Assembly: GCA_004321885.1 (NCBI GenBank)
Contig: SCQK01000008.1
Location: forward strand, 1-44,042
Length of the DNA: 44,042 nt
Reading direction: 5' to 3'
Origin: Patescibacteria group bacterium
GTDB taxonomy: Bacteria > Patescibacteriota > Patescibacteriia > Magasanikbacterales > GWA2-37-8
The notes below the pieces were generated by a model. The model saw nothing but the letters and a program-made list of their open reading frames with translations, searched no databases and had not been told where the DNA came from. Made by a program: the position numbers and the translations under genes. Of the stretch, positions 1 to 38,375 are shown in pieces. The number at the start of each line of letters is the position of its first letter. Positions within the stretch are counted from its first letter, which is position 1.

Positions 1-1299
1 TACAGTTTTTTTAATCAAATCAACCAAATTTGGGTGATAGTGTTCATATTGATTTTTTCCTTCTTTATTTAAATATATTTTAAACCACTCTGGATGGGAA
101 CTGCGATAGTAATCGGCCATGCCAGCAATTGTTTTGAATCCGGTGTTCATTTCTTTGGCCAACCCGCCGTTAGTCATCCATCCTTCCGGCGCTATTTCAC
201 CTCTTTCATCCGCTTTCTGTTTAATCAAATTTATCAAGTCATGGTGATAATGTTCTGATGGTCTTGCTTTTTTATCTAAGTATATTTTAAACCACTCTGG
301 ATGATATCGGCGATGAATTTGGGCTAAGGATCGTACGAAATTCCAACTTACCCCCAATAAAACAGCCACCCCACCATTAGTCATCCATCCTTCCGGCGCT
401 AATTCACCCCTTTCTTCTATATTTCTTTTTATTAGATTAATTAAATCTGGATGAAAATGCTCGTTTGGTTTATGTGCCTTGTCTAAGTATATTTTAAACC
501 ACTCTGGATGGGAACTGCGATAGTGATCGGCCATGTCAGCAATTGTTTTGCATCCGGTGTTCATTTCTTTGGCCACCTCCCTATTAGTCATCCATCCTTC
601 CGGCGCCAACTCCCTTTCTTCTATATTTCTTTTTATTAGATTAATTAAATCTGGATGAAAATGCTCGCGGGCGCTTTTACTGGATTTTTCTAAATACATT
701 TGAAACCATTCAGGATGAGAATGGCGATGTGGTGCTGCAAGTAATTTTATACTTGAATTACTAATATCTAATATTTCAGCTAATCCATTATTGGTTTTCC
801 AATCATCTGGTGCTGTGGTTCCCCTGTTAGATAGTGTCAGTTTTATTAAGTCGATTAAATTTGGATGGTAATGTTCGGTTGGCTTATTTGATTTGTCTAG
901 GTATGTTTTAAACCATTCTGGGTGCGAATTGCGATAAGCGTTTGCTAAATTATTGATTATTTTTCTTCCGGCTTTAAGTTCTCTCTCTAAACCAAAATTT
1001 GTAAACCAGCCGTTAGGAGGCTGTGGTACCCTTTTGTTTAGGTACTCTCTTATTAGATTTATCAGATTCGGATGTAAATATTCGTGTTTATTCTGTCTAT
1101 TTCCTAGATATATCTTAAACCATTCTGGGTGAGAATCGCGATAAGAATTAGCCGTTGACTCTATGAGATAGGAACTAACATTAAAAGATTTCGCCACCCC
1201 GTTATTAGTCATCCATCCTTCCGGAGCCCTTTCGGCTTTCTCTGTTTTTTCAATTGTTTGTACTACCGGTGTTATACCTCCTTCTGGTTTTCTATTCAT
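1..1299 (-). CDS. Partial (3' end beyond the window) tandem-repeat protein. It has at least 6 copies of a roughly 80-aa repeat (…APEGWMTNxGxAKxxN…YRxSHPEWFKIYLDKxxKPxEHxHPxLIxLIK…). Each repeat contains an HTH-like W-x-T-x-x-x-A motif.
   Basis: A minus-strand ATG at 1299 (the plus strand reads 'cat' at 1297-1299). The frame stays open to position 1. The roughly 240-bp DNA repeats are near-identical, for example 70-190 versus 490-600. The ORF track omitted it because it runs off the window edge. Confidence 0.5.
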   Translation of the reverse strand, partial: MNRKPEGGITPVVQTIEKTEKAERAPEGWMTNNGVAKSFNVSSYLIESTANSYRDSHPEWFKIYLGNRQNKHEYLHPNLINLIREYLNKRVPQPPNGWFTNFGLERELKAGRKIINNLANAYRNSHPEWFKTYLDKSNKPTEHYHPNLIDLIKLTLSNRGTTAPDDWKTNNGLAEILDISNSSIKLLAAPHRHSHPEWFQMYLEKSSKSAREHFHPDLINLIKRNIEERELAPEGWMTNREVAKEMNTGCKTIADMADHYRSSHPEWFKIYLDKAHKPNEHFHPDLINLIKRNIEERGELAPEGWMTNGGVAVLLGVSWNFVRSLAQIHRRYHPEWFKIYLDKKARPSEHYHHDLINLIKQKADERGEIAPEGWMTNGGLAKEMNTGFKTIAGMADYYRSSHPEWFKIYLNKEGKNQYEHYHPNLVDLIKKTV

Positions 1300-1357
1300 A
1301 TCTTAGTGTTTATTATGGCTATATTTTACCTTTTTTATAGCACCGTGTCCATTAATG

Positions 1358-1392
1358 AAAACCCAGCGGTTTTATGCGCTGGGTTTTTGTGT
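1358..1392 (+). terminator. GC hairpin (aaaacccagcg…cgctgggtttt) followed by a T-tract. It looks like an intrinsic terminator and may be bidirectional.
   Basis: A perfect 11-bp inverted repeat with an 8-nt loop, followed by tttttgtgtttt. Confidence 0.4.
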
Positions 1393-1464
1393 TTTGTCAT
1401 AGGAACCACAGAAAATGTGTGAGAGGGGCAGCGCGACGTGAGTCGGCTGCCCCCCCTCTTTCTC

Positions 1465-1782
1465 CTAGTCTGGTATTTCAAGCGGATAAGCGCGCATGGG
1501 GCGTTCGATGCCCAGCGCCTGGCTGATGTCTTTGGGGCGGTTGAAGGTTTTGCCGTCAACTTCCACCTTGGTCAGACGGACCACACCGCCGTCAGTGGTG
1601 ATGTTGGGGATGCAGATTCCCCGGTACCCAACGGCTACGATCAAGCCCGGCTTGAAGGACAACACCTCCCTATATCGAGCGCTTACCTTGTTGTGTGGGT
1701 ATGGCTCGACTTCGAGTACACGGAACACCGTGTTGCCGATGCGGAGGGTTCTGCCGATAACCTCACGTCCAAAGAGCAGCAT
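1465..1782 (-). CDS. Hypothetical 105-aa protein. It may be a small beta-barrel of PUA/ASCH type, but that is unclear.
   Basis: Clean ORF. Every plus-strand ORF overlapping it looks like antisense shadow. Confidence 0.35.
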   Translation of the reverse strand: MLLFGREVIGRTLRIGNTVFRVLEVEPYPHNKVSARYREVLSFKPGLIVAVGYRGICIPNITTDGGVVRLTKVEVDGKTFNRPKDISQALGIERPMRAYPLEIPD

Positions 1783-1867
1783 GCCATGTCTCCTTGTTGG
1801 CGGTTTTAAGTCTGTCCGTTGTTTAAAACACTAATCTGAAAATACTGGCTTGTCAATATTATTGTAC

Positions 1868-1913
1868 AAAAAACCAGCCCTCCGAAGTTATATCGGAGGG
1901 CTGTTGTATTTTT
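1868..1913. terminator. Bidirectional intrinsic terminator (cagccctccga-agttatat-cggagggctg). It is T-rich on both sides.
   Basis: A perfect 10-11-bp stem. It sits downstream of the 3' end of the minus-strand SPFH gene. Confidence 0.55.
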
Positions 1914-1927
1914 GGACGATTGGCGAA

Positions 1928-1964
1928 AGGGATTCCTCCCCGCCCTGGGCGGGTCGGAATGACA
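1928..1964. repeat. P6-family element (gggattcYtccccgcccYgggcRggtcRgaatgaca).
   Basis: A near-identical copy at 3108-3143 and an inverted partial copy at 28543-28578. Confidence 0.6.
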
Positions 1965-1970
1965 AAACCT

Positions 1971-2005
1971 CACCCCCTGCCCCTCCCCTTATAGGGGAGG
2001 GTGCG
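1971..2005. repeat. P1 palindromic element (CCCTCCCC-TTATA-GGGGAGGG with one extended arm).
   Basis: One of about 16 copies of this family in the window. Confidence 0.7.
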
Positions 2006-2006
2006 A

Positions 2007-2777
2007 TTAAACCCTCGGCGGGAGGTTTTCTTTATTCAAGAATTTTTTGATGTCGTCTATCGTACTCATGAATTGCGCCGGGAAGATGATGGTGGAATTT
2101 TTTTCAATGCTGATTTCCGCCATGGTCTGCAAGTTGCGCAGTTGCAGGGCGATGGGGTGGGCCATCATCACGTCGGCGGTATCGGCCAGTTTTTGCGAGG
2201 CCAGGAATTCGCCCTCGGCCGCGATGATTTTGGCGCGCTTTTCCCGTTCGGCTTCGGCCTGTTTGGCCATGGCCCTTTGCATGCCCTCGGGCAGTTCAAT
2301 ATCTTTTATTTCCACCACGGCCACGACCACGCCCCAGGCCTCGGTGTGCGCGTCCAACACCTTGGCGATTTCTTTGTTGATGGTTTCGCGCTCGCTTAGT
2401 ATTTCGTCCAATTGAAATTTGCCCACGATGTTTCGCACCGAGGTTTGCGCGATTTGGTTGATGGCCGACATTACGTTTTCAATGGCCACGATGCTTTTGA
2501 TGGAGTCCACAATTTTATAATAAGCCACGGCCGACACGTCCACGGACACGTTGTCTTTGGTAATAATTTTCTGCGGCGGAATGGGCAGGGTAACGGTGCG
2601 AAAATCCACCTTGCGCATCTGTTCAATAATTGGAATAATCCAGCTTAAGCCGGGTTCTTTGACGCGCACGATTTTACCCAGGCGGAAAACCACGCCTTTT
2701 TGGTATTGCTGGACAATGCGCAGGCCCCAGAAAATGACGATGACCGCGATGACTATAATCCACCATGTTAGCGACAT
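2007..2777 (-). CDS. SPFH/band-7 (stomatin/HflC-like) membrane protein of about 256 aa.
   Basis: N-terminal TM (MSLTWWIIVIAVIVIFWGL), then a typical SPFH body and coiled-coil (…EREKRAKIIAAEGE…). The start is set at the internal ATG at 2775-2777. The upstream extension consists of repeat DNA. Confidence 0.8.
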   Translation of the reverse strand: MSLTWWIIVIAVIVIFWGLRIVQQYQKGVVFRLGKIVRVKEPGLSWIIPIIEQMRKVDFRTVTLPIPPQKIITKDNVSVDVSAVAYYKIVDSIKSIVAIENVMSAINQIAQTSVRNIVGKFQLDEILSERETINKEIAKVLDAHTEAWGVVVAVVEIKDIELPEGMQRAMAKQAEAEREKRAKIIAAEGEFLASQKLADTADVMMAHPIALQLRNLQTMAEISIEKNSTIIFPAQFMSTIDDIKKFLNKENLPPRV

Positions 2778-2802
2778 ATGGTTTTGATTAGTGAATGAGT
2801 AC

Positions 2803-2840
2803 CCCTCTCTATCTCTCCCCTTATCAAGGGGAGAGAAAAG
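2803..2840. repeat. P1 palindromic element, CTCTC variant (ctctcccc-ttatcaa-ggggagag).
   Basis: Inverted repeat in the SPFH 5' region. Confidence 0.6.
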
Positions 2841-2886
2841 TAAGTGTACAGTACAATACCTCTGTTTTTTTGTCCACAGGGGTGGC

Positions 2887-2914
2887 TTGCGTGAAAAAAA
2901 ATATCTGCTATAAT
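2887..2914 (+). promoter_or_regulatory. Sigma70-like promoter: TTGCGT, a 16-nt spacer, TATAAT.
   Basis: -35 element at 2887-2892 and a consensus -10 at 2909-2914. It would drive the DUF4430 / surface-protein operon. Confidence 0.45.
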
Positions 2915-3101
2915 GCACTGGCGACAATTCAAGTGTATTTGTGGAAGTGAGGTATCGGGCTTTTGGCCCTTAATTCCTCCACTGTGCCGCAACGGTAATG
3001 GTCGCCTTCGGCGACCGAGTCCGGTCTTCAAATATACTAAATCTCCCGAGCAGGAAATATTGTTTTCGCGTCAATTTCTGCTCGGCAGAAATTTTTTTGT
3101 T

Positions 3102-3716
3102 ATGAAAGGGATTCTTCCCCGCCCCGGGCAGGTCAGAATGACAATCGGGATGTTGATTTTGCTGATTTTAATCGCGATAGCGAGCGGGGTGTGGTTGTTG
3201 TTGGCAGAACAGAAAGATGCGAATACCCCTCTCTCTGTCTCTCCCCTAAAGGGGGAGAGAAGTTTGGATGCCTCTCCCCCTCCTGACATTCAGGCTCCAC
3301 AGCCCCGACGTAAAGTCGGGGACTATGGAGCCAGCCTCGTTACCCCTCCCCAACCCTCCTCCCGAAACAAGTTCGGGACAAGCTCTTATAAAGTGGAGGG
3401 TACGGCCACGAGCGCGCCGGTCGTTGGCGCGAAAATGCTCATCGGCGGGCAAGAGTTTATTTTTTCCGTCCCCGCGGGCGCCACGGTTTATGACGCCATG
3501 AAACAGCTGGCGGATGAGAAAAAAATATTTTTCAGCGGCAAAGAATACGCGGGCATGGGATTTTTTGCGGAAGAAATAAACGGCTTGCAAAACGGTGACG
3601 GCGGCAAGTATTGGATTTATTATGTCAACGGCCAGCAGGCAAAAGTAGGAGTCTCAAGTTATTTAATTAAATCAAGTGACATAATTTCTTGGGTGTATGA
3701 AAACGAAAAATTTTAG
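3102..3716 (+). CDS. DUF4430-like (transcobalamin-like C-terminal domain) membrane-anchored protein. The start is ambiguous among ATGs at 3102, 3138 and 3150.
   Basis: N-terminal TM (MLILLILIAIASGVWLLLA). The C-terminus (GKYWIYYVNGQQAKVGVSSYLIKSSDIISWVYE) matches the DUF4430 pattern. The linker contains two in-frame palindromic elements. The ATG at 3138 lies inside a P6 element. Confidence 0.55.
   Translation: MKGILPRPGQVRMTIGMLILLILIAIASGVWLLLAEQKDANTPLSVSPLKGERSLDASPPPDIQAPQPRRKVGDYGASLVTPPQPSSRNKFGTSSYKVEGTATSAPVVGAKMLIGGQEFIFSVPAGATVYDAMKQLADEKKIFFSGKEYAGMGFFAEEINGLQNGDGGKYWIYYVNGQQAKVGVSSYLIKSSDIISWVYENEKF
3108..3143. repeat. P6-family element; it overlaps the probable start codon.
   Basis: Compare the copy at 1928-1964. 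Confidence 0.6.
3226..3262. repeat. P1 palindromic element, in-frame inside the CDS (it encodes …PLSVSPLKGERS…).
   Basis: cccctctctctgtctctcccc-taaag-ggggagagaag. Confidence 0.65.
3295..3335. repeat. P2 hairpin element (gctccacagccccgac-gtaaa-gtcggggactatggagc), in-frame inside the CDS (it encodes …APQPRRKVGDYGAS…).
   Basis: A second copy lies at 40567-40606, intergenic. Confidence 0.65.
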
Positions 3717-5862
3717 AGGAGCAATTTTTGTCAACATCGTATTTTTTTTGGCAATAAGCGCGGCGGTTTTTTACGCGACGCCGGCGCAAGCGGATGAGGC
3801 GACCACTTCCACGCCCGCCTCCACCATTATCGTGCGCCATGAAAATCAAGTTGTGTTTAGCGGCTCTGCGCCCTTAGCCGCCACCATCTATCACGATGAC
3901 GTAAATAATATTGATTACACGTTGGCCACCGGCACGGTTTTTTCCGCCCTGGCGGCCGCGGACAATGCCAGCGCGGCCTTTGATATTACGGACGCGCAAT
4001 TTAATTCCGGCTTCAACAGTTTTTACGTGGCCTGCCTGGCCATCGCCAGCTCCACCAGCAGTACTGCGCCGCAAAATGCCTGCGCTAATTGGAACTATGT
4101 CGTGAACAATACTTACCCAAGCGTGGGCATGGATAAATATAATTTAAGCGGGGGCGAAACAGTATACGTGTATTTTTCCGATTCATGGAAAATTTCCGCT
4201 TCTACCAGCACCTTTCCGGCCAATACCACGACTACCCTGCAAACCTGGCGCTACCAATACGATAACACGGCCGAGCCCTGGGCGCCGGACGGCAATGACC
4301 TGATTGATATTTCCGTCAGCAATCCCTCGTCAACCGGCTGGTGGGACGCGACTATCACCGCTACCACCACACAAAGCAATGCCGGCGGCGCAGTTGATTT
4401 TAAGTTCGCGGCCACGGGCACATATTTCGCCAAAATCACATCGCTTGACTGGTCAAAATGGAGCAATCCCATCACCCTTTCCGTGTTGCCCGCTCTTGAA
4501 GTTGCGGCCGCAACCACCAGCGCCGAGCAAATCAACGCGGCAGTGGCGAAAGTTTTGAATTTTTTGAGAACAAAACAGGGCGCGGACGGCGCAATTGCGG
4601 ATTTGGGCACATCGGATTGGGCCGCCATGTCTTTTGCCGCGAGCAACACTTACGCGGCCGATGTCAAAAGCGCCGGCGCCTCGCTGGGAGAATTTTTAAG
4701 CGGCGCCGAAGCGACCACATCCACGGACCCGCTTAATATCTGCGCCGGCTATGCCCGGCACGCGCTGGGTTTGCTGGCCGCCGGAATTGATAAAAGCGAC
4801 GTCAAGATAGTTGAATTGAAAGACAAAATAAAAACCCGGTGTTATGCGGCCGGAATTGTGGGCAAAGCAGGCATCAACGATGATATTTTTATTTTGTTGG
4901 CCCTGCTGGCGGCCGATGAAAGCGTGGACAGCGAAATCGCGCAGGCCGCGCTAACGGCCGTCAAAACCGACCAGCAGGCAAGCGGCGCTTTTACCTGGAG
5001 CGGCTGGCCCGGCCAGGATGTAACCGGCGCGGCCATAAACGCGCTGAAATACGCGGCCGGCCGCGGCGCCGCAGTGGACGCGTCTGTGTTTGACAACGCG
5101 AAAAATTATTTGCGTTCCACCCAGTTGCCCGATGGCGGCTGGGGATTTGGCGCGGCCGACGCACTGACGACTGGCTGGGCGATGTATGGTCTAAACGCGC
5201 TGGGCGAAGGCCAAAGCCAATGGACAAACGCCCAGGGGAAAAATCCGTGGTCCGTGCTGGTCGGCACACTGGGCGCGGGCGGATATTATGAAACTGCCTG
5301 GAGCGCCGACGGCATTGATTGGTTTGCCACCAAGCACGCCGTGCCGGCCCTGCTGGGAAAATCATGGCCAGTTGTTTTGGCTCCGCGATATGTTGCCGCG
5401 CCTGCCTCGCCGGCAGTCGGCGGTTCTTCGCCGCCCGACGCGTCGCCTATAGACGCGCCGGTTTATTCCGTTCCGATTAGTTCATCTTTGCCCGGGATAG
5501 TTTCTTTCAGCGCCGTCACTGCCCCAAACAGCGCGGCCGCCGCGACTATTGTTGAAAGCGATAATGCCGCTATTTCGCCGCCAAACGCTCGCATCATCAA
5601 GTCGCTCAGGCAATTCGTCGCGTCTAAAAGCAAAGTGTTGCAAACCGCGGCCGGAATTAAAGCCGCCCCTGCCGGCGCCGCCAGCGAACAAAAAATCGCT
5701 TCACAAAAAATCGGTCGCCTAAGGCGACCGACTGCCATCGCGGAGGAAAAAAATCCCCGTGAAAATCCCCGCGCAAAAATTAAAGTTATATTTTACGCTT
5801 CGGCAATCGGCGTCGTGCTGGCCGGGCTATACCTGGGGCGTGGTCTGCTCGGGAAGGTTTGA
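3697..5862 (+). CDS. Secreted or surface protein of 721 aa with prenyltransferase/terpene-cyclase-type alpha-alpha toroid repeats and a C-terminal membrane anchor.
   Basis: Signal peptide (…ATPAQA). Repeated Q-x-x-DGGW / GWxxxGxxxAL motifs (QLPDGGWGFGAADALTTGWAMYGLNALG, QQASGAFTWSGWPG…). C-terminal TM (VIFYASAIGVVLAGLYL). It overlaps the DUF4430 gene by 20 nt, so the two form an operon. Confidence 0.7.
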   Translation: MKTKNFRGAIFVNIVFFLAISAAVFYATPAQADEATTSTPASTIIVRHENQVVFSGSAPLAATIYHDDVNNIDYTLATGTVFSALAAADNASAAFDITDAQFNSGFNSFYVACLAIASSTSSTAPQNACANWNYVVNNTYPSVGMDKYNLSGGETVYVYFSDSWKISASTSTFPANTTTTLQTWRYQYDNTAEPWAPDGNDLIDISVSNPSSTGWWDATITATTTQSNAGGAVDFKFAATGTYFAKITSLDWSKWSNPITLSVLPALEVAAATTSAEQINAAVAKVLNFLRTKQGADGAIADLGTSDWAAMSFAASNTYAADVKSAGASLGEFLSGAEATTSTDPLNICAGYARHALGLLAAGIDKSDVKIVELKDKIKTRCYAAGIVGKAGINDDIFILLALLAADESVDSEIAQAALTAVKTDQQASGAFTWSGWPGQDVTGAAINALKYAAGRGAAVDASVFDNAKNYLRSTQLPDGGWGFGAADALTTGWAMYGLNALGEGQSQWTNAQGKNPWSVLVGTLGAGGYYETAWSADGIDWFATKHAVPALLGKSWPVVLAPRYVAAPASPAVGGSSPPDASPIDAPVYSVPISSSLPGIVSFSAVTAPNSAAAATIVESDNAAISPPNARIIKSLRQFVASKSKVLQTAAGIKAAPAGAASEQKIASQKIGRLRRPTAIAEEKNPRENPRAKIKVIFYASAIGVVLAGLYLGRGLLGKV

Positions 5863-6594
5863 AACCGGATTGGCTTTGGCGCTCGCGTAAAGAGCAATCG
5901 CGGCCAGCGCCGAGAGCGGAGTGAAGATGGCGTTGATGGCCGAGCTGATAATACTTGTGGAAATTTCGCGCGTGAACTCGTCTTTGACCAGTAGGCCAAA
6001 CGGCGCGCTCAAAATCAGCGCAATAAGCGAAGACCCCAGGCCGATGACAACCGCTGGCGCGAGCAAGCGCCAAAGTATTCCCCACCAGCGGCCGGCCACC
6101 ATGGCCTTGCTTTCGCGCAAGGCGCTCATTCCGGTTTTGCCTTCCAAAGCCACGATATAGAAAACAAACGAATACCAGACCGAAAAAATAATACCCGGGA
6201 CAATGAGCAGGAAAGTGCCTCCTAAAATAATAATCCCCGCGAGCAGAGACGTGTACACGACCGGCCAAATTAAATTATTGCTTTGGCTGAAAGTTTCTTT
6301 CCAGTGCGGCAGTGGCTGGTCTTCCACCAATTTGAGCAGGGCGCGCGATAGGGCAATGGCGGCCCACAGCATAAATACCAGCCCGATGGCCACCAATCCA
6401 AAAAACAGCGCCAGCGCGCCGATCGCGGTCTTGGATGGGCCAAAAATTGAATAAAGGTAGGTGTTGGCGGTGTCAAGTATAAACAAAATTACGGTTGGCA
6501 AAAATATAAGCAACATGTAATTGCTTAGGTTTTTCCAGTTTTTTTTGTACAAATTCCAGCTTTTGCTTAAAATTTCTTCGGTGGAGATGAGCAT
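5827..6594 (-). CDS. Polytopic integral membrane protein of 255 aa with no assigned function.
   Basis: Several hydrophobic segments. It overlaps the tail of the convergent surface-protein gene. Confidence 0.55.
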   Translation of the reverse strand: MLISTEEILSKSWNLYKKNWKNLSNYMLLIFLPTVILFILDTANTYLYSIFGPSKTAIGALALFFGLVAIGLVFMLWAAIALSRALLKLVEDQPLPHWKETFSQSNNLIWPVVYTSLLAGIIILGGTFLLIVPGIIFSVWYSFVFYIVALEGKTGMSALRESKAMVAGRWWGILWRLLAPAVVIGLGSSLIALILSAPFGLLVKDEFTREISTSIISSAINAIFTPLSALAAIALYASAKANPVSNLPEQTTPQV

Positions 6595-6601
6595 AAGTGT
6601 A

Positions 6602-7300
6602 TTATAAAATAGTTTTTAATAAAGCCACGGCCTTTTGTTTTATTATATCAATTTTATCGGCAGTGGACAAGTAGTGAACGGCTGTGCCACGGTCGGTAAA
6701 GATTTTTTGGTACTCGGGATTTTTGAATTGCGCTTCGGCTTTTTTCAAAAATTCCAGTTTTTCAAAAACAGCATTATCTTTTTTATCGCCCCTTTCGTTC
6801 AGCCGCGCCAGGGCTTCTTCGGCCTGGAGGTCGCAGATAATCAGATGGTCGGGGCGATGTTCCAAAGCCAGAGCGTTGCCGGGAAGCGCGGCTATCCCGG
6901 CGAAGTTCATTTCGCCTCCAAATGTTTGGTAGGCCAGCGAAGTGCTAAACGAGCGGTCGGCGATAATACAACGGCCATCGGCCAGCAGTGGGATATACAT
7001 TTTTTTATATAAAATTAAGCGGTCAAGCGAATAGGCCTGGGCAATGGCGGCCATGGAATAATTATTGCCATTTTTTATCAGCTCTTCACGGATGACTTTA
7101 CCCACGCCTGTGTAGGTGGGCTCGGCGGAAAAAATAAAATCATACGGGCGCGTTTCCGTCAGGGACGGGTATTCACATGTTTCTTTAATATAATTTTTCA
7201 AATCAAAAATACCGTTGCCTTCGGCCGCCAACTCTTCTTTCCAAAAATTAATAATTGTTCCCTTGCCGCTACCGTCAATGCCGTCTATGACAATGAACAT
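6602..7300 (-). CDS. tmk: Thymidylate kinase.
   Basis: P-loop FIVIDGIDGSGKGT and the DRS…SLAYQ motif. Confidence 0.75.
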   Translation of the reverse strand: MFIVIDGIDGSGKGTIINFWKEELAAEGNGIFDLKNYIKETCEYPSLTETRPYDFIFSAEPTYTGVGKVIREELIKNGNNYSMAAIAQAYSLDRLILYKKMYIPLLADGRCIIADRSFSTSLAYQTFGGEMNFAGIAALPGNALALEHRPDHLIICDLQAEEALARLNERGDKKDNAVFEKLEFLKKAEAQFKNPEYQKIFTDRGTAVHYLSTADKIDIIKQKAVALLKTIL

Positions 7301-7339
7301 ATACCTAAATTTTCAATTCGCAAATTGATAAATTGAAAA

Positions 7340-7846
7340 TTATTTTACCCGATACTTTACCTGCACCACGTTTGTATCAAGTTGTTTGGTCTCCAAAAGT
7401 TCCAAATTCAAATCCACGTCCGCGCCTAAAAAAAGCGGCAGGCCTTTGCCAAAAAGTTTGGGCTCTATCGTGAGCCAGGTTTCATTTATCAGCCCCTCTG
7501 TCAAAAATATCCCGTTGATGGTGGCCCCGCCGCCGATGATGACCGAAGAAAAGCCGCGCTGTTCCAAGTCGGCCAAAAGTTCTTTTGGTTGCTTGTCAGT
7601 ATATTCTACCGAGCCGGCAATATTTTTGCTCGCGTCGGGTTTGCGGGTCATGACAACGATGAGCCGGCCAGGCAAGGGCTTGCCTACTGTGGCATAAGTG
7701 GCCTGGCCGAAAATAATGACACCGGCTTTTTTGGTTTCTTCCACGAACATTTTTTTGTCGGCCTTGCTGGTCCAGTCGGCCGTATGCTTGCTGTCCCGAC
7801 CGATGAGCCCGTCCGCCGTAACGGCCATTAGTAATATAGTTTTCAT
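7340..7846 (-). CDS. Dihydrofolate reductase family protein (DHFR / RibD-C fold).
   Basis: MKTILLMAVTADGLIGRD…GVIIFGQATYATVGKPLPGRLIVVMTR. It overlaps the thyA stop by 4 nt. Confidence 0.65.
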   Translation of the reverse strand: MKTILLMAVTADGLIGRDSKHTADWTSKADKKMFVEETKKAGVIIFGQATYATVGKPLPGRLIVVMTRKPDASKNIAGSVEYTDKQPKELLADLEQRGFSSVIIGGGATINGIFLTEGLINETWLTIEPKLFGKGLPLFLGADVDLNLELLETKQLDTNVVQVKYRVK

Positions 7847-8715
7847 ACAGCTATCTCAAAATTTATTTTCGGATAACTTTGGTAATTTAGAATTTTCGTG
7901 TCCTCGTACTTCCAGTCAAAAATGGAAGTGAAATTTTCGGTTTGGATTTGCGGCAGGGGGTAAGTGTTCGGGTCGCGGGTGAGTTGTTCTTTCATTCCCT
8001 CAACGTGGTTTAAGTATATGTGGGTGTCCGCCAAAAATCCCACGAGTTTTCCTTCTTGGTAGCCCGTTTCTTTTGCCAACAGATGAAGCAGGGTGGCGTA
8101 GCTGGCGATGTTAAACGGCAGGCCGAGCGCCGTGTCCACGGTTCGCTGGCTCCAAAGCAAATTTAGCCGACCAGACATCACGGTCACTTGAAAACCAAAA
8201 TGGCAGAAAGGCGGGTTTACTATGTCCCTGTCCATCGGGTTCCAAGCCAAAACCATCATTCGTCTGCTGTGGGGGATCGATTTTAGGTCGTCAACCGTTC
8301 TTTTTAATTGGTCAACTCCCTGGCCGGTGTAGTCCACATCATATCCGGCGTACTTGGCGCCGAAATGTCGCCACTGCCAGCCGTAGATGGGTCCAAGGTC
8401 GCGTTCCTCCAACATTTTCTTTTTTGATTCTTCGTCGTGGCTGTATGGCACTTTGGCCGGCGTGCACCACTCATCCCAGATGTGATTATTTCGGTCTTGC
8501 AGCCATTTTTTGTCGCTGATACCCTTGATGAAAAATTCCAGTTCCGAGGCCACCAGGCGATAGGGAATTTTTTTGGTGGTGAGCAAGGGAAAACCCTTGG
8601 ACATGTCGTGTTCAAACAAGGCCCCGGCAATGGCAATAGTGCCGGTGCCGGTACGGTCTTCCTTTTTTTCCCCTTTTTCCAAAATCGCGCGGACAATATC
8701 CAAGTATGCTCGCAT
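7843..8715 (-). CDS. thyA: Thymidylate synthase.
   Basis: DRTGTGT…, FPLLTTKK, and the catalytic region. Collinear with ThyA over its full length. Confidence 0.9.
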   Translation of the reverse strand: MRAYLDIVRAILEKGEKKEDRTGTGTIAIAGALFEHDMSKGFPLLTTKKIPYRLVASELEFFIKGISDKKWLQDRNNHIWDEWCTPAKVPYSHDEESKKKMLEERDLGPIYGWQWRHFGAKYAGYDVDYTGQGVDQLKRTVDDLKSIPHSRRMMVLAWNPMDRDIVNPPFCHFGFQVTVMSGRLNLLWSQRTVDTALGLPFNIASYATLLHLLAKETGYQEGKLVGFLADTHIYLNHVEGMKEQLTRDPNTYPLPQIQTENFTSIFDWKYEDTKILNYQSYPKINFEIAV

Positions 8716-8725
8716 AAAAATATTA

Positions 8726-9154
8726 TTATCCCGTGCTGCCGAAGCCGCCGCGGCTGTCGTCGCTCATTTTATCGGTTTCTTCCCACTCGGCCGTGTCCAC
8801 GCGCAGGAAAGAGGCTTGGGCCACCCGTTCGCCGCGCTCAATTTTGACTTCGGCATCGGTAAAATTGTAGGCCAAAAATTTTATTTCGTCTTCTTCGCCG
8901 TGATAATCCTGATCCACGATGCCGATGCCGTGCGGGGAGAGCAGGCCTTTTCTTTTGGGGGTGCTGGAGCGGGGAGTGACGGCCAGCATATAGCCCTTGG
9001 GGACTTCAATTATAAGATTGGTCGGTATCAGGGCGATGGTTTTGGGCGCGATGGTGATGTCTTCGCGCGAGTACAGGTCAAACGCCACCGAGCCCGGAGT
9101 TTTGTATTCAGGCAGGGGCATGGTTTTATCAATTCGTTTGATTTTTACTCGCAT
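8726..9154 (-). CDS. dut: dUTP diphosphatase.
   Basis: dUTPase motif GIGIVDQDYHGEEDEI. Confidence 0.85.
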   Translation of the reverse strand: MRVKIKRIDKTMPLPEYKTPGSVAFDLYSREDITIAPKTIALIPTNLIIEVPKGYMLAVTPRSSTPKRKGLLSPHGIGIVDQDYHGEEDEIKFLAYNFTDAEVKIERGERVAQASFLRVDTAEWEETDKMSDDSRGGFGSTG

Positions 9155-36436: not shown

Positions 36437-36470
36437 AAGAAAAAAGACGCTCTTATGAGACGTCTTTTTT
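36437..36470. terminator. Bidirectional terminator aaaaaagacgctc-ttatg-agacgtcttttttt.
   Basis: The stem is flanked by A6 and T7. Confidence 0.55.
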
Positions 36471-36698
36471 TATTTCCTCTAAATATTTTTTGATAAATTT
36501 TTCAACGTACTCTACTACTTCCTCGCGCGCTTCAGGCGGACTTTGCGCCACTTTTTGGAAGGGAGCGGCGATACAGCTTTCCAGCACGCGGGGGAAGCGA
36601 GTGTGAAACTCTGGAATAGGTTCGTTCCAGCCCATGGTATCTTGTGCCAAACGGTGGGCGGTATATTTTATCAGTTCTAAAGTGATTGGCTTGGACAT
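36453..36698 (-). CDS. Doc/Fic-family-like N-terminal fragment (81 aa) lacking the catalytic Fic motif. Probably a truncated toxin.
   Basis: ITLELIKYTAHRLAQDTMGWNEPIPEFHTRFPRVLESCIAAP resembles the Doc N-terminus. No HxFx(D/N)GNKR motif is present. Confidence 0.35.
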   Translation of the reverse strand: MSKPITLELIKYTAHRLAQDTMGWNEPIPEFHTRFPRVLESCIAAPFQKVAQSPPEAREEVVEYVEKFIKKYLEEIKKDVS

Positions 36699-36699
36699 A

Positions 36700-36951
36700 T
36701 TATTCTTGGCCCAGCATTTTTAACGTCTCGCCATATTCACGCACGACCTTTTTTACGCCCTTATCAATTTCTTTTTTTTGTCCGGCAGAAAGTTGACCGC
36801 CATTTATCTCTGGCAGGTCGTTTTTTTTGATGATATAAGTTTTACCGATTTTTTCGGCCTTAATTTCGCCTTTTTTGATTCTATTGAATATTGTCACCCT
36901 GCTTACCCCCAAAATTTCGGCCAATTGTTTGGTAGTAAGATAACCAGACAT
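36700..36951 (-). CDS. HTH DNA-binding protein of the excisionase / MerR-like HTH_17 family (83 aa).
   Basis: LTTKQLAEILGVSRVTIFNRIKKGEI. Confidence 0.6.
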   Translation of the reverse strand: MSGYLTTKQLAEILGVSRVTIFNRIKKGEIKAEKIGKTYIIKKNDLPEINGGQLSAGQKKEIDKGVKKVVREYGETLKMLGQE

Positions 36952-37292: not shown

Positions 37293-37721
37293 ATGTCCAC
37301 AGTCAACCAACTGGTGCGCCGCGGGAGACATCCCAAAAAGCGCAAGACAAAAGTTCCGGCCCTGCAATTCACGCTGGACACTTTGCATCGCAAGAGAACG
37401 GATTTGCCGCATGGCGCGGCTTTTAAGCGCGGGGTTTGCACCAAGGTGTACACCACCACGCCCAAGAAACCAAACTCGGCCTTGCGCAAAGTCGCCAAGG
37501 TGCGACTCTCAAACGGCATGGAAGTTATCGCTTACATCCCGGGCGAGGGCCATAATTTGCAAGAGCACTCCATCGTGCTTTTGCGCGGCGGCCGCGTGAA
37601 GGATTTGCCGGGCGTGCGCTATCACATAGTGCGCGGTGTTTATGATACCCAAGGTATAGAAGCCCGCAGACGCGGACGAAGCGTTTACGGCGCTAAGCGA
37701 CCGAAAGCGGCCAAGAAATAA
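37293..37721 (+). CDS. rpsL: 30S ribosomal protein S12, with an insertion of about 15 aa between the PAL and RGVC motifs.
   Basis: …VPALQ[[20 protein letters not shown]][27 protein letters not shown]…. Confidence 0.9.
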
Positions 37722-37725
37722 TTTA

Positions 37726-37829
37726 CCCCTCCCTAACCCTCCCCTTATATGCGAAATGAGAGAGGAAACAAAAGCAATGCTTTTGTTTCCGAACGAATGA
37801 GCATATATCCAGGATATAAAGGGGGAGGG
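37726..37829. repeat. P1 element split by a 64-bp secondary insertion (37751-37814) that carries its own hairpin (ggaaacaaaagcaatgcttttgtttcc).
   Basis: The left arm is cccctccctaaccctcccc-ttata (ends 37750). The right arm is tataaa-gggggaggg (37815-37829). Confidence 0.55.
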
Positions 37830-37844
37830 ACTAACGAAACTATT

Positions 37845-38375
37845 ATGCGTGGAAGCAAAAAACAGGAAAAGCGGCCAATCGCGGCCGACCCAAAATATGG
37901 TTCGGTCCAACTGGCCAAGTTTATCAATTATGTGATGGAAAGGGGCAAGAAAACCGTGGCCCGAGCAATCGTTTACGGCGCTTTGGAAAACATCGCCGAA
38001 TCCGCCTCTGCCAAAGGAGTAGATGCGTCCTCTGGCGCCAAAGGCGGACAGGGCGGCAAAAAAGACGCGCTCAAAGTTTTTGAGGAAGCCGTGCGCAACG
38101 TGGCCCCCCAGGTAGAGGTGCGCTCGCGGCGCGTGGGCGGAGCCAACTATCAGGTGCCCATGCCTGTCAGCTCCTCGCGCCAGCACGCCCTTACTTTCCG
38201 CTGGATTATAGACGCGGCGCGCAATAAAAAAGGCCTGCCCATGGCCAAAAAGCTAGCCCAGGTTTTGCTTGACGCCAGCAACAACACCGGCGACGCCATG
38301 AAAAAGCGCGACGACGTGCATAGAATGGCCGAAGCCAACAAGGCCTTCGCGCACTTTGCCCGCTTTGCTAAATAA
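37845..38375 (+). CDS. rpsG: 30S ribosomal protein S7, with an insertion of about 14 aa (…[14 protein letters not shown]…).
   Basis: S7 similarity (…[16 protein letters not shown]…[15 protein letters not shown]). The start is at the ATG at 37845. Confidence 0.85.

Follow-up and report, generated by a model that had tools for sequence, protein, structure and literature searches.

What does the protein encoded at the very edge of contig SCQK01000008.1 (GenBank assembly GCA_004321885.1) do, and which machinery does its array of repeats serve? The contig, 44,042 nucleotides from a Patescibacteria group bacterium, was analysed over its full length and is called the window here. It opens within a minus-strand open reading frame (ORF) that starts at an ATG (1299) and stays open for 433 codons down to base 1, and the product is identical to the NCBI entry 'hypothetical protein EPN28_02460, partial [Patescibacteria group bacterium]'. 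A leader of 24 residues is followed by six tandem units, R1 to R6, each of which is predicted to fold as a small winged helix. Since an in-frame stop lies two codons 5' of the ATG, the N terminus of the repeat protein is real and short, while the C terminus lies beyond the contig end (Table 1). On a modest balance of probability, we read the ORF as the beginning of a multivalent DNA-binding array that would target a Snf2 ATPase-methyltransferase.

The preliminary description of this DNA had counted at least six tandem repeats in the partial protein, and this count is confirmed by a direct-repeat search (207-nt spacing), by TRF (period 207, score 621, detected over 65-667 only) and by a repeat hidden Markov model (HMM), which finds the six units at E-values of 1e-26 to 1e-31 and gives one further match in the six-frame translation of the window, a weak one on an ORF of the helix-turn-helix (HTH) family HTH_17. 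The unit is 69 amino acids or 207 nt long, rather than the approximately 80 amino acids or 240 bp first given, and the copies described as near-identical, with highly identical DNA, prove to be well diverged: their protein identity is 43-71% and their codon-aligned DNA identity 54-81%, with most pairs at 54-66% and R4/R6 at 81% (71% in protein). Across the family, a unit is typically about 42% identical to its nearest counterpart in the same protein. Within the core that had been called strictly conserved, the six units agree without exception in HPEWF and YL, and the remainder has one or two exceptions, namely S to Y before HPEWF (R5), K to Q after it (R3), EH to EY (R1), HP to HH (R5) and LI to LV (R6). 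The N-terminal motif is in essence as described, (A/P)P(E/D/N)(G/D)W-TN.

This divergence also speaks to the history of the array. Where two units have the same amino acid, most pairs share the codon as often as the codon usage of the gene predicts; these pairs are therefore old and saturated at synonymous sites, and the pattern does not speak for an array recently expanded or homogenised, as was supposed, other than by local conversion tracts. Excess codon sharing is confined to R3-R6 (R4/R6, 31 against 20 expected; R5/R6, 23 against 14; also R4/R5 and R3/R4), and the tails of R3 and R4 have an exact 56-nt tract in common (612-667 = 408-463). Such a mosaic points to gene conversion or duplication acting locally, within the distal half of the repeats. 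The nearest relative of a window unit is another unit of the same protein in five of the six cases, with one tie.

A total of 359 units were taken from 86 homologues, and 100 diverse ones were aligned as input for AlphaFold2 and for profile searches. The model of R4 obtained in this way has a mean pLDDT of 92 and a beta-helix-helix-beta-beta-helix topology, with strands (E) and helices (H) at E6-7, H8-15, H19-30, E37-41, E47-51 and H53-67 and a short HPEW turn ahead of E37-41. It resembles solved winged helices of the MerR/excisionase type, its best structural matches being pSK1 Par, RacA, MerR regulators and phage excisionases; the solved structures matched include ParA N-domains, many MerR-family regulators, GlnR/TnrA, mycobacteriophage Pukovnik Xis and TorI; Foldseek returned RacA-DNA (probability 0.99, TM-score 0.56) and a putative excisionase. 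Alignment of the repeat profile to the HTH_17 protein of the window with hhalign gave 80% probability over 25 columns, covering the strand and the HTH. The original suggestion of an excisionase/MerR-type winged HTH in every unit is borne out at the level of the fold by the predicted topology and this alignment, and we assign the MerR/excisionase-type winged-helix fold to the unit with high confidence.

At the level of sequence, the unit is a new family of this well-known fold, without a match above threshold in the curated models searched. In Pfam, neither the window protein nor its single units match HTH_17 or MerR at E ≤ 10, and nothing above threshold was found for them in Pfam, NCBIfam, PADLOC or PHROGs. 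Matches to DUF4838, Zeta_toxin and TIR-TM models were rejected as sub-threshold or repeat-summed noise. A PDB sequence search with the protein and a search with the 100-unit profile gave nothing significant, and in profile searches the unit matches no known repeat class (Ig, Kelch, TPR etc.), the outcome that the preliminary description had named as counting against it. The homologues do show many sub-threshold Pfam matches at the unit starts, to HTH_29, HTH_28, HTH_23, HTH_17 and MerR_1, with WHD_BrxR faint. The closest homologue, P0002, carries a precomputed match to PF27471.1, an entry absent from the Pfam copy searched, which may be a very recent family that already covers the unit.

The surface of the unit is that of a candidate DNA binder. 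Unit length is narrowly fixed at 67-69 residues, with linkers of about five. Lysine and arginine are enriched at positions 20, 23, 24, 28 and 30 of the recognition helix and at positions 38, 41, 43 and 46 of the wing, and the most variable surface positions (8-10, 19-20, 39 and 43-48) adjoin these basic ones. The mean unit charge is +1.3, and the window fragment has an isoelectric point of 9.0. Each window unit also holds three to five histidines at conserved sites flanking the wing (consensus positions 33, 50 and 52, in S-H-PEW ... E-H-x-H-P), where histidine frequencies across the family are 70%, 56% and 42%, respectively; a metal site or a pH-sensitive contact beside the wing is conceivable.

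The unit profile was scanned against 1.84 billion representative proteins (50%-identity clusters) and matched 986 clusters at E ≤ 1e-3 and 640 at E ≤ 1e-10, with 1-15 units per protein. All matches with a named organism belong to the candidate phyla radiation (CPR), comprising Patescibacteria, Peregrinibacteria, Moranbacteria, Magasanikbacteria, Doudnabacteria, Colwellbacteria and Uhrbacteria. Among 199 family proteins, the units follow an N-terminal domain of about 240 residues without known family in 83 and a superfamily 2 (SF2) helicase (approximately 460-530 residues; ResIII/DEAD/Helicase_C) in 36. A leader of 15-75 residues, 5-12 units and some 990 residues with SNF2-rel_dom, Helicase_C and Methyltransf_11 are found in 19; nine further proteins have a short leader, an array and a shorter tail, and 33, many of them probably fragments, consist of leader and units only. 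The first two classes always carry at least 215 residues ahead of the first repeat, and because the leader of the window protein is a true one of 24 residues, with neither the domain nor a helicase before the array, it lies outside both and belongs with the short-leader proteins. Where short-leader proteins have any tail, the array continues into a Snf2 linker (DILYKxRPEY...VKG..A.YLGDFL) in 23 of 29, and P0002, at 43% identity the best homologue of the window protein, ends in this linker. Leaders comparable to that of the window protein (15-75 residues) precede the arrays both in the Snf2-methyltransferase class and in array genes that stand alone. Several leaders (P0087, P0098, P0114, P0115 and P0118, also P0085 and P0086) contain a CxHGN(x5-6)CxxC motif, possibly a small zinc knuckle, which the window leader lacks. 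A locus search with the window protein found a single locus in the genome collection and another in the metagenome collection, neither of them closely related, and none among viral contigs.

The presumed partner is itself a conserved CPR protein. With its core as query (linker-Snf2-methyltransferase, 977 residues of P0177), at least 187 clusters were found at E ≤ 1e-20 and 45-73% identity, all named sources being CPR (Patescibacteria, Levybacteria, Saccharimonadia), and the genes sit amid housekeeping genes on contigs of up to 1.1 Mb. Proteins so conserved in genomes of about 1 Mb usually have central roles. Among solved chains, CHD4, ISWI, Chd1 and the Sulfolobus Snf2 core come nearest to the ATPase; the methyltransferase belongs to the class I S-adenosylmethionine (SAM) enzymes and gives Methyltransf_11 and weak Methyltransf_8 matches, and a PDB search with the methyltransferase and C-terminal tail of full-length members gave no informative relatives. 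Membership of a known defence system (DISARM DrmD, Zorya ZorD, BREX BrxH, Dpd DpdE) was rejected, the similarity to NCBIfam and PADLOC models being that of a generic Snf2 core (49 bits, far short of the NCBIfam cutoffs of 500-1100), and no defence partner genes occur in the neighbourhoods of the family loci, which are housekeeping.

The association of array and motor is seen by both fusion and conserved adjacency. Among 120 Snf2-methyltransferase orthologues, 66 carry 1-10 copies of the window-type unit at the N terminus, and array genes precede array-less orthologues on the same strand. At locus L007, units are distributed as 7 + 7 + 4 over three genes upstream of a motor gene that opens with a repeat tail and the linker; at L001, 1 + 7 units are followed by an overlapping motor gene; and at L012, 5 + 3 units behind another N-domain lie directly upstream of the motor gene. 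On the 681-kb CPR contig of L011, three tightly packed genes (96-5951) encode 12 + 9 + 7 divergent units, i.e., 28 winged helices, with the Snf2-methyltransferase gene (6001-9138) downstream of them. Each of these three genes opens with an 'M.EKF...' leader, continues with full units and ends in a half unit, a pattern also present in L007, so that the multi-gene arrays of both loci look like duplicated cassettes of leader plus array and not like random frameshifts. L013 (559-5994) contains different periodic modules, including a 72-residue 'HPEWQGRS..EM..DKES..AFY' unit.

These loci bear directly on the alternative that the window protein is a stand-alone architectural protein of the nucleoid-associated kind, whose leader and repeats coat, bridge or bend DNA with no tie to the Snf2-methyltransferase. 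In its favour, 34 of the 63 family proteins with a short leader stop inside the array, complete array-only genes (leader, n repeats and half a repeat) are known from L007 and L011, and pSK1 Par and RacA, whose solved folds come nearest, anchor DNA. However, all stand-alone array genes with readable surroundings (L001, L007, L011 and L012) lie directly 5' of a Snf2-methyltransferase gene on the same strand, and many 'array-only' proteins are probably fragments at contig ends, as in the window. We consider this alternative unlikely, and a functional tie of the window array to a Snf2-methyltransferase in this genome, as deduced from family architecture, likely.

Orthologues without the window-type unit provide a second line of evidence. 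Several have other tandem modules of about 63-74 residues in the same position, occupying the N-terminal 640-740 residues in P0303, P0209 and P0250: eight HTH_17 units in P0303 (Pfam 83 bits against a cutoff of 27), with a MerR match, about nine Xis-like units (W..KFGIS...GR....LYN) in P0209 and about ten HNH_repeat units in P0250. The segment of the P0303 and P0209 units that spans the tryptophan and the HTH aligns in register, weakly, with the window unit (hhalign 50%). Judged by these annotations, the N-terminal position accepts several kinds of DNA-binding repeat. The early proposal of a multivalent DNA-binding protein fits both this replacement and the fusions to Snf2 and SF2 motors, and we hold DNA binding by the array to be probable.

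The same evidence can be set against a second alternative, in which the winged helices are modules that recruit protein or RNA partners to a scaffold and do not read DNA. The most conserved residues are indeed core or aromatic (HPEWF, EHY-P) and not obvious base contacts, and the net-acidic units of the window would suit such a role. It is at odds with the three fusion partners of recognisable function, which are all DNA or RNA motors, the Snf2 core being of the double-stranded DNA translocase type; with the orthologues in which HTH_17 or HNH_repeat arrays, DNA-binding by annotation, take the place of the array; and with the clustering of basic residues on the recognition helix and wing. We regard a scaffold of this kind as quite improbable. 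That the ORF is an assembly artefact or decaying pseudogene, a collapsed or chimeric array at a contig edge, is very improbable: the contig break does fall inside the array, the repeat gene has a GC content of 37% against 48-60% in neighbouring genes and several related loci are split into multiple ORFs, but the 433 codons are open, the six units each score E ≤ 1e-26 against a family HMM built mostly from other assemblies, the architecture is common to about 1000 clusters from independent assemblies, the divergence of the units (54-81% nucleotide identity) makes collapse unlikely and the split loci consist of regularly structured genes that have leaders of their own. A secreted or surface repeat protein was rejected, the leader being polar with no hydrophobic stretch and the fusion partners all cytoplasmic nucleic-acid enzymes.

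We propose that the array works as follows. Each 69-residue unit is predicted to be an independent winged helix, in which a strand and an HTH are followed by the HPEW turn, the beta-hairpin wing and a last helix. Behind its short leader, the array would serve a highly conserved, CPR-specific machine composed of the linker, the Snf2 ATPase, the class I SAM methyltransferase and a C-terminal tail, either fused to the N terminus of the motor or located in one to three genes immediately 5' of it. The array could lie along DNA and contact many consecutive sites, with the recognition helices and wings, which carry the conserved basic residues and most of the variable ones, making the contacts, and could thereby anchor or target the Snf2 translocase-methyltransferase. 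The gene reads leftwards off the contig, so the remaining part of the array and the motor, whether fused to it or encoded by the gene that follows, would be expected beyond the left end.

Several observations weigh against the proposal of a targeting array. The contig ends inside repeat 6, before any fused tail or next gene. The other 43 kb of the window lack both the linker and the Snf2-methyltransferase core, an absence from which nothing follows. There is no close orthologue in the searched databases, where the next match is 43% identical, and assignment of the window protein to a class by sequence similarity failed, with 35-43% identity to every class; in 6 of the 29 short-leader proteins that are informative, the tail is of another kind. 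The evidence for the fold is a prediction for one 69-residue domain, the Foldseek E-values are weak, none being ≤ 1e-3, and the hhalign alignments span the HTH part only. Two of the six window units carry a net charge of -2, no residue is assignable to base contacts, and winged helices may also bind proteins or RNA. A literature search found nothing specific on the arrays or on the Snf2-methyltransferase motor.

The array can be compared with several known systems. The unit has the same predicted topology as the MerR/excisionase winged helix (HTH_17 PF12728; MerR PF00376, PF13411), and its HTH can be aligned to the HTH_17 protein of the window. It differs in a conserved HPEW turn between recognition helix and wing and in an invariant N-terminal tryptophan, and it lacks a dimerisation coiled coil or effector domain, occurring in 1-15 linked copies rather than once per chain. 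In pSK1 Par and RacA, a MerR-like winged helix grips repeated DNA sites and multivalency is reached through oligomerisation. The sequence identity of the unit to these proteins (PDB 8csh, 5i41/5i44) is 14-19%; they combine one winged helix with a coiled coil and partner with the segregation apparatus, whereas the array would be multivalent within one chain and its family partners with a Snf2 ATPase-methyltransferase. Xis proteins (lambda, L5, Pukovnik) form cooperative filaments on tandem sites at phage attachment regions. They belong to the same fold class, and the covalent array would resemble a single-chain, head-to-tail version of such a filament, but Xis acts as separate monomers for recombination directionality and the array has no integrase context.

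The eukaryotic Snf2 remodellers offer an analogy for the motor. HAND-SANT-SLIDE in ISWI and SANT-SLIDE in Chd1 are DNA-binding accessory modules, and the CPR proteins may likewise have their Snf2 motor tethered to a distinct DNA-binding module, by which it would be anchored or positioned. In contrast to ISWI and Chd1, the array has another fold, is long and N-terminal, the protein also has a class I methyltransferase, and the CPR host is without nucleosomes. The HTH_17 and HNH_repeat (PF18780) arrays of P0303, P0209 and P0250 share the position, with units of about 70-74 residues in 8-10 copies, but are different sequence families from the window unit, HNH_repeat being of another fold class by annotation. 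TALE proteins, C2H2 zinc-finger arrays and UBF HMG-box arrays are chains of small tandem DNA-binding modules, and the array likewise has many tandem modules whose copy number varies between relatives; it differs from them in fold and unit length and has no evident recognition code, and its units are diverged where those of TALE are near-identical.

What distinguishes the CPR arrays is the unfamiliar deployment of a familiar fold, in long covalent arrays coupled to a lineage-wide Snf2-methyltransferase, with array types that appear interchangeable. If the arrays bind DNA, they would be a natural case of covalently chained excisionase-like domains and could reveal how CPR bacteria organise, remodel or mark their chromosomes, with a tractable experimental entry point, as single soluble 69-residue domains can be made. 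For annotation, the finding explains the 'hypothetical' labels of such genes, which are found at contig ends because repeats break assemblies. A far more speculative extension, in which we place little belief, is that these are modular sequence-reading arrays: the hypervariable residues on the recognition helix and wing would let every winged helix recognise a few base pairs, and the order and number of units would program where the Snf2 translocase-methyltransferase acts on the tiny CPR chromosome. Were this true, swaps of array type (window unit, HTH_17, HNH_repeat) and of copy number between orthologues, the latter reaching extremes of 1-15 per protein and up to 28 across three adjacent genes, would amount to rapid retargeting, and the whole to a TALE-like system by which bacteria target a chromatin-type motor.

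Table 1 Features of the repeat gene and its surroundings in the window (i-E, independent E-value)
Feature	Position	Strand	Basis or remark
Partial ORF, 433 codons: 24-aa leader and six predicted winged-helix repeats, C terminus beyond contig end	1..1299	-	translation
Leader MNRKPEGGITPVVQTIEKTEKAER, short, polar, ahead of first repeat	1228..1299	-	translation
R1, residues 25-93	1021..1227	-	repeat HMM i-E 5e-29
R2, residues 94-162	814..1020	-	repeat HMM i-E 1e-28
R3, residues 163-231	607..813	-	repeat HMM i-E 2e-26; tail has 56-nt tract in common with R4
R4, residues 232-300; unit modelled by AlphaFold2	400..606	-	repeat HMM i-E 1e-31
R5, residues 301-369	193..399	-	repeat HMM i-E 8e-28
R6, residues 370-433, 64 of 69 residues, truncated at contig end	1..192	-	repeat HMM i-E 3e-29
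Sigma-70-like promoter match TGGACA-17-TAAAAT, ends 24 nt 5' of ATG	1323..1351	-	consensus scan, 10/12 matches
Hairpin, 14-bp stem, between repeat gene and upstream minus-strand ORF	1355..1390	.	terminator-like scan, flagged on + strand; pattern match only
105-aa ORF, no family	1465-1782	-	annotation
SPFH/Band 7 protein	2007-2927	-	annotation
DUF4430 protein	2913-3716		annotation
DUF4430 protein, weak terpene-cyclase-like repeats	3697-5862		annotation
Membrane protein	5827-6594	-	annotation
HTH_17 (excisionase-type) ORF, 83 aa	36700-36951	-	Pfam E 4e-11
Ribosomal protein S12/S7 genes	37293-38375	+	

By annotation, the neighbours of the repeat gene at 1465-6594 are unrelated to it. The 165-nt spacer to the upstream minus-strand ORF holds both the promoter-like match and the hairpin; the former is a pattern only, such sites being no more numerous in the region than in shuffles, and the latter may insulate the repeat gene from the upstream gene. 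An 81-residue ORF abuts the HTH_17 ORF just downstream on the same strand, the pair spanning 36453-36951 on the minus strand. At L001, the array and Snf2-methyltransferase locus lies directly 5' of S12/S7/EF-G, and in the window 36 kb separate the array from S12/S7. The GC content of the window ranges from 36% to 62% per kb, with further low-GC patches at about 12-13 kb and 25-28 kb, and these swings could mark islands of foreign DNA or reflect amino-acid bias.

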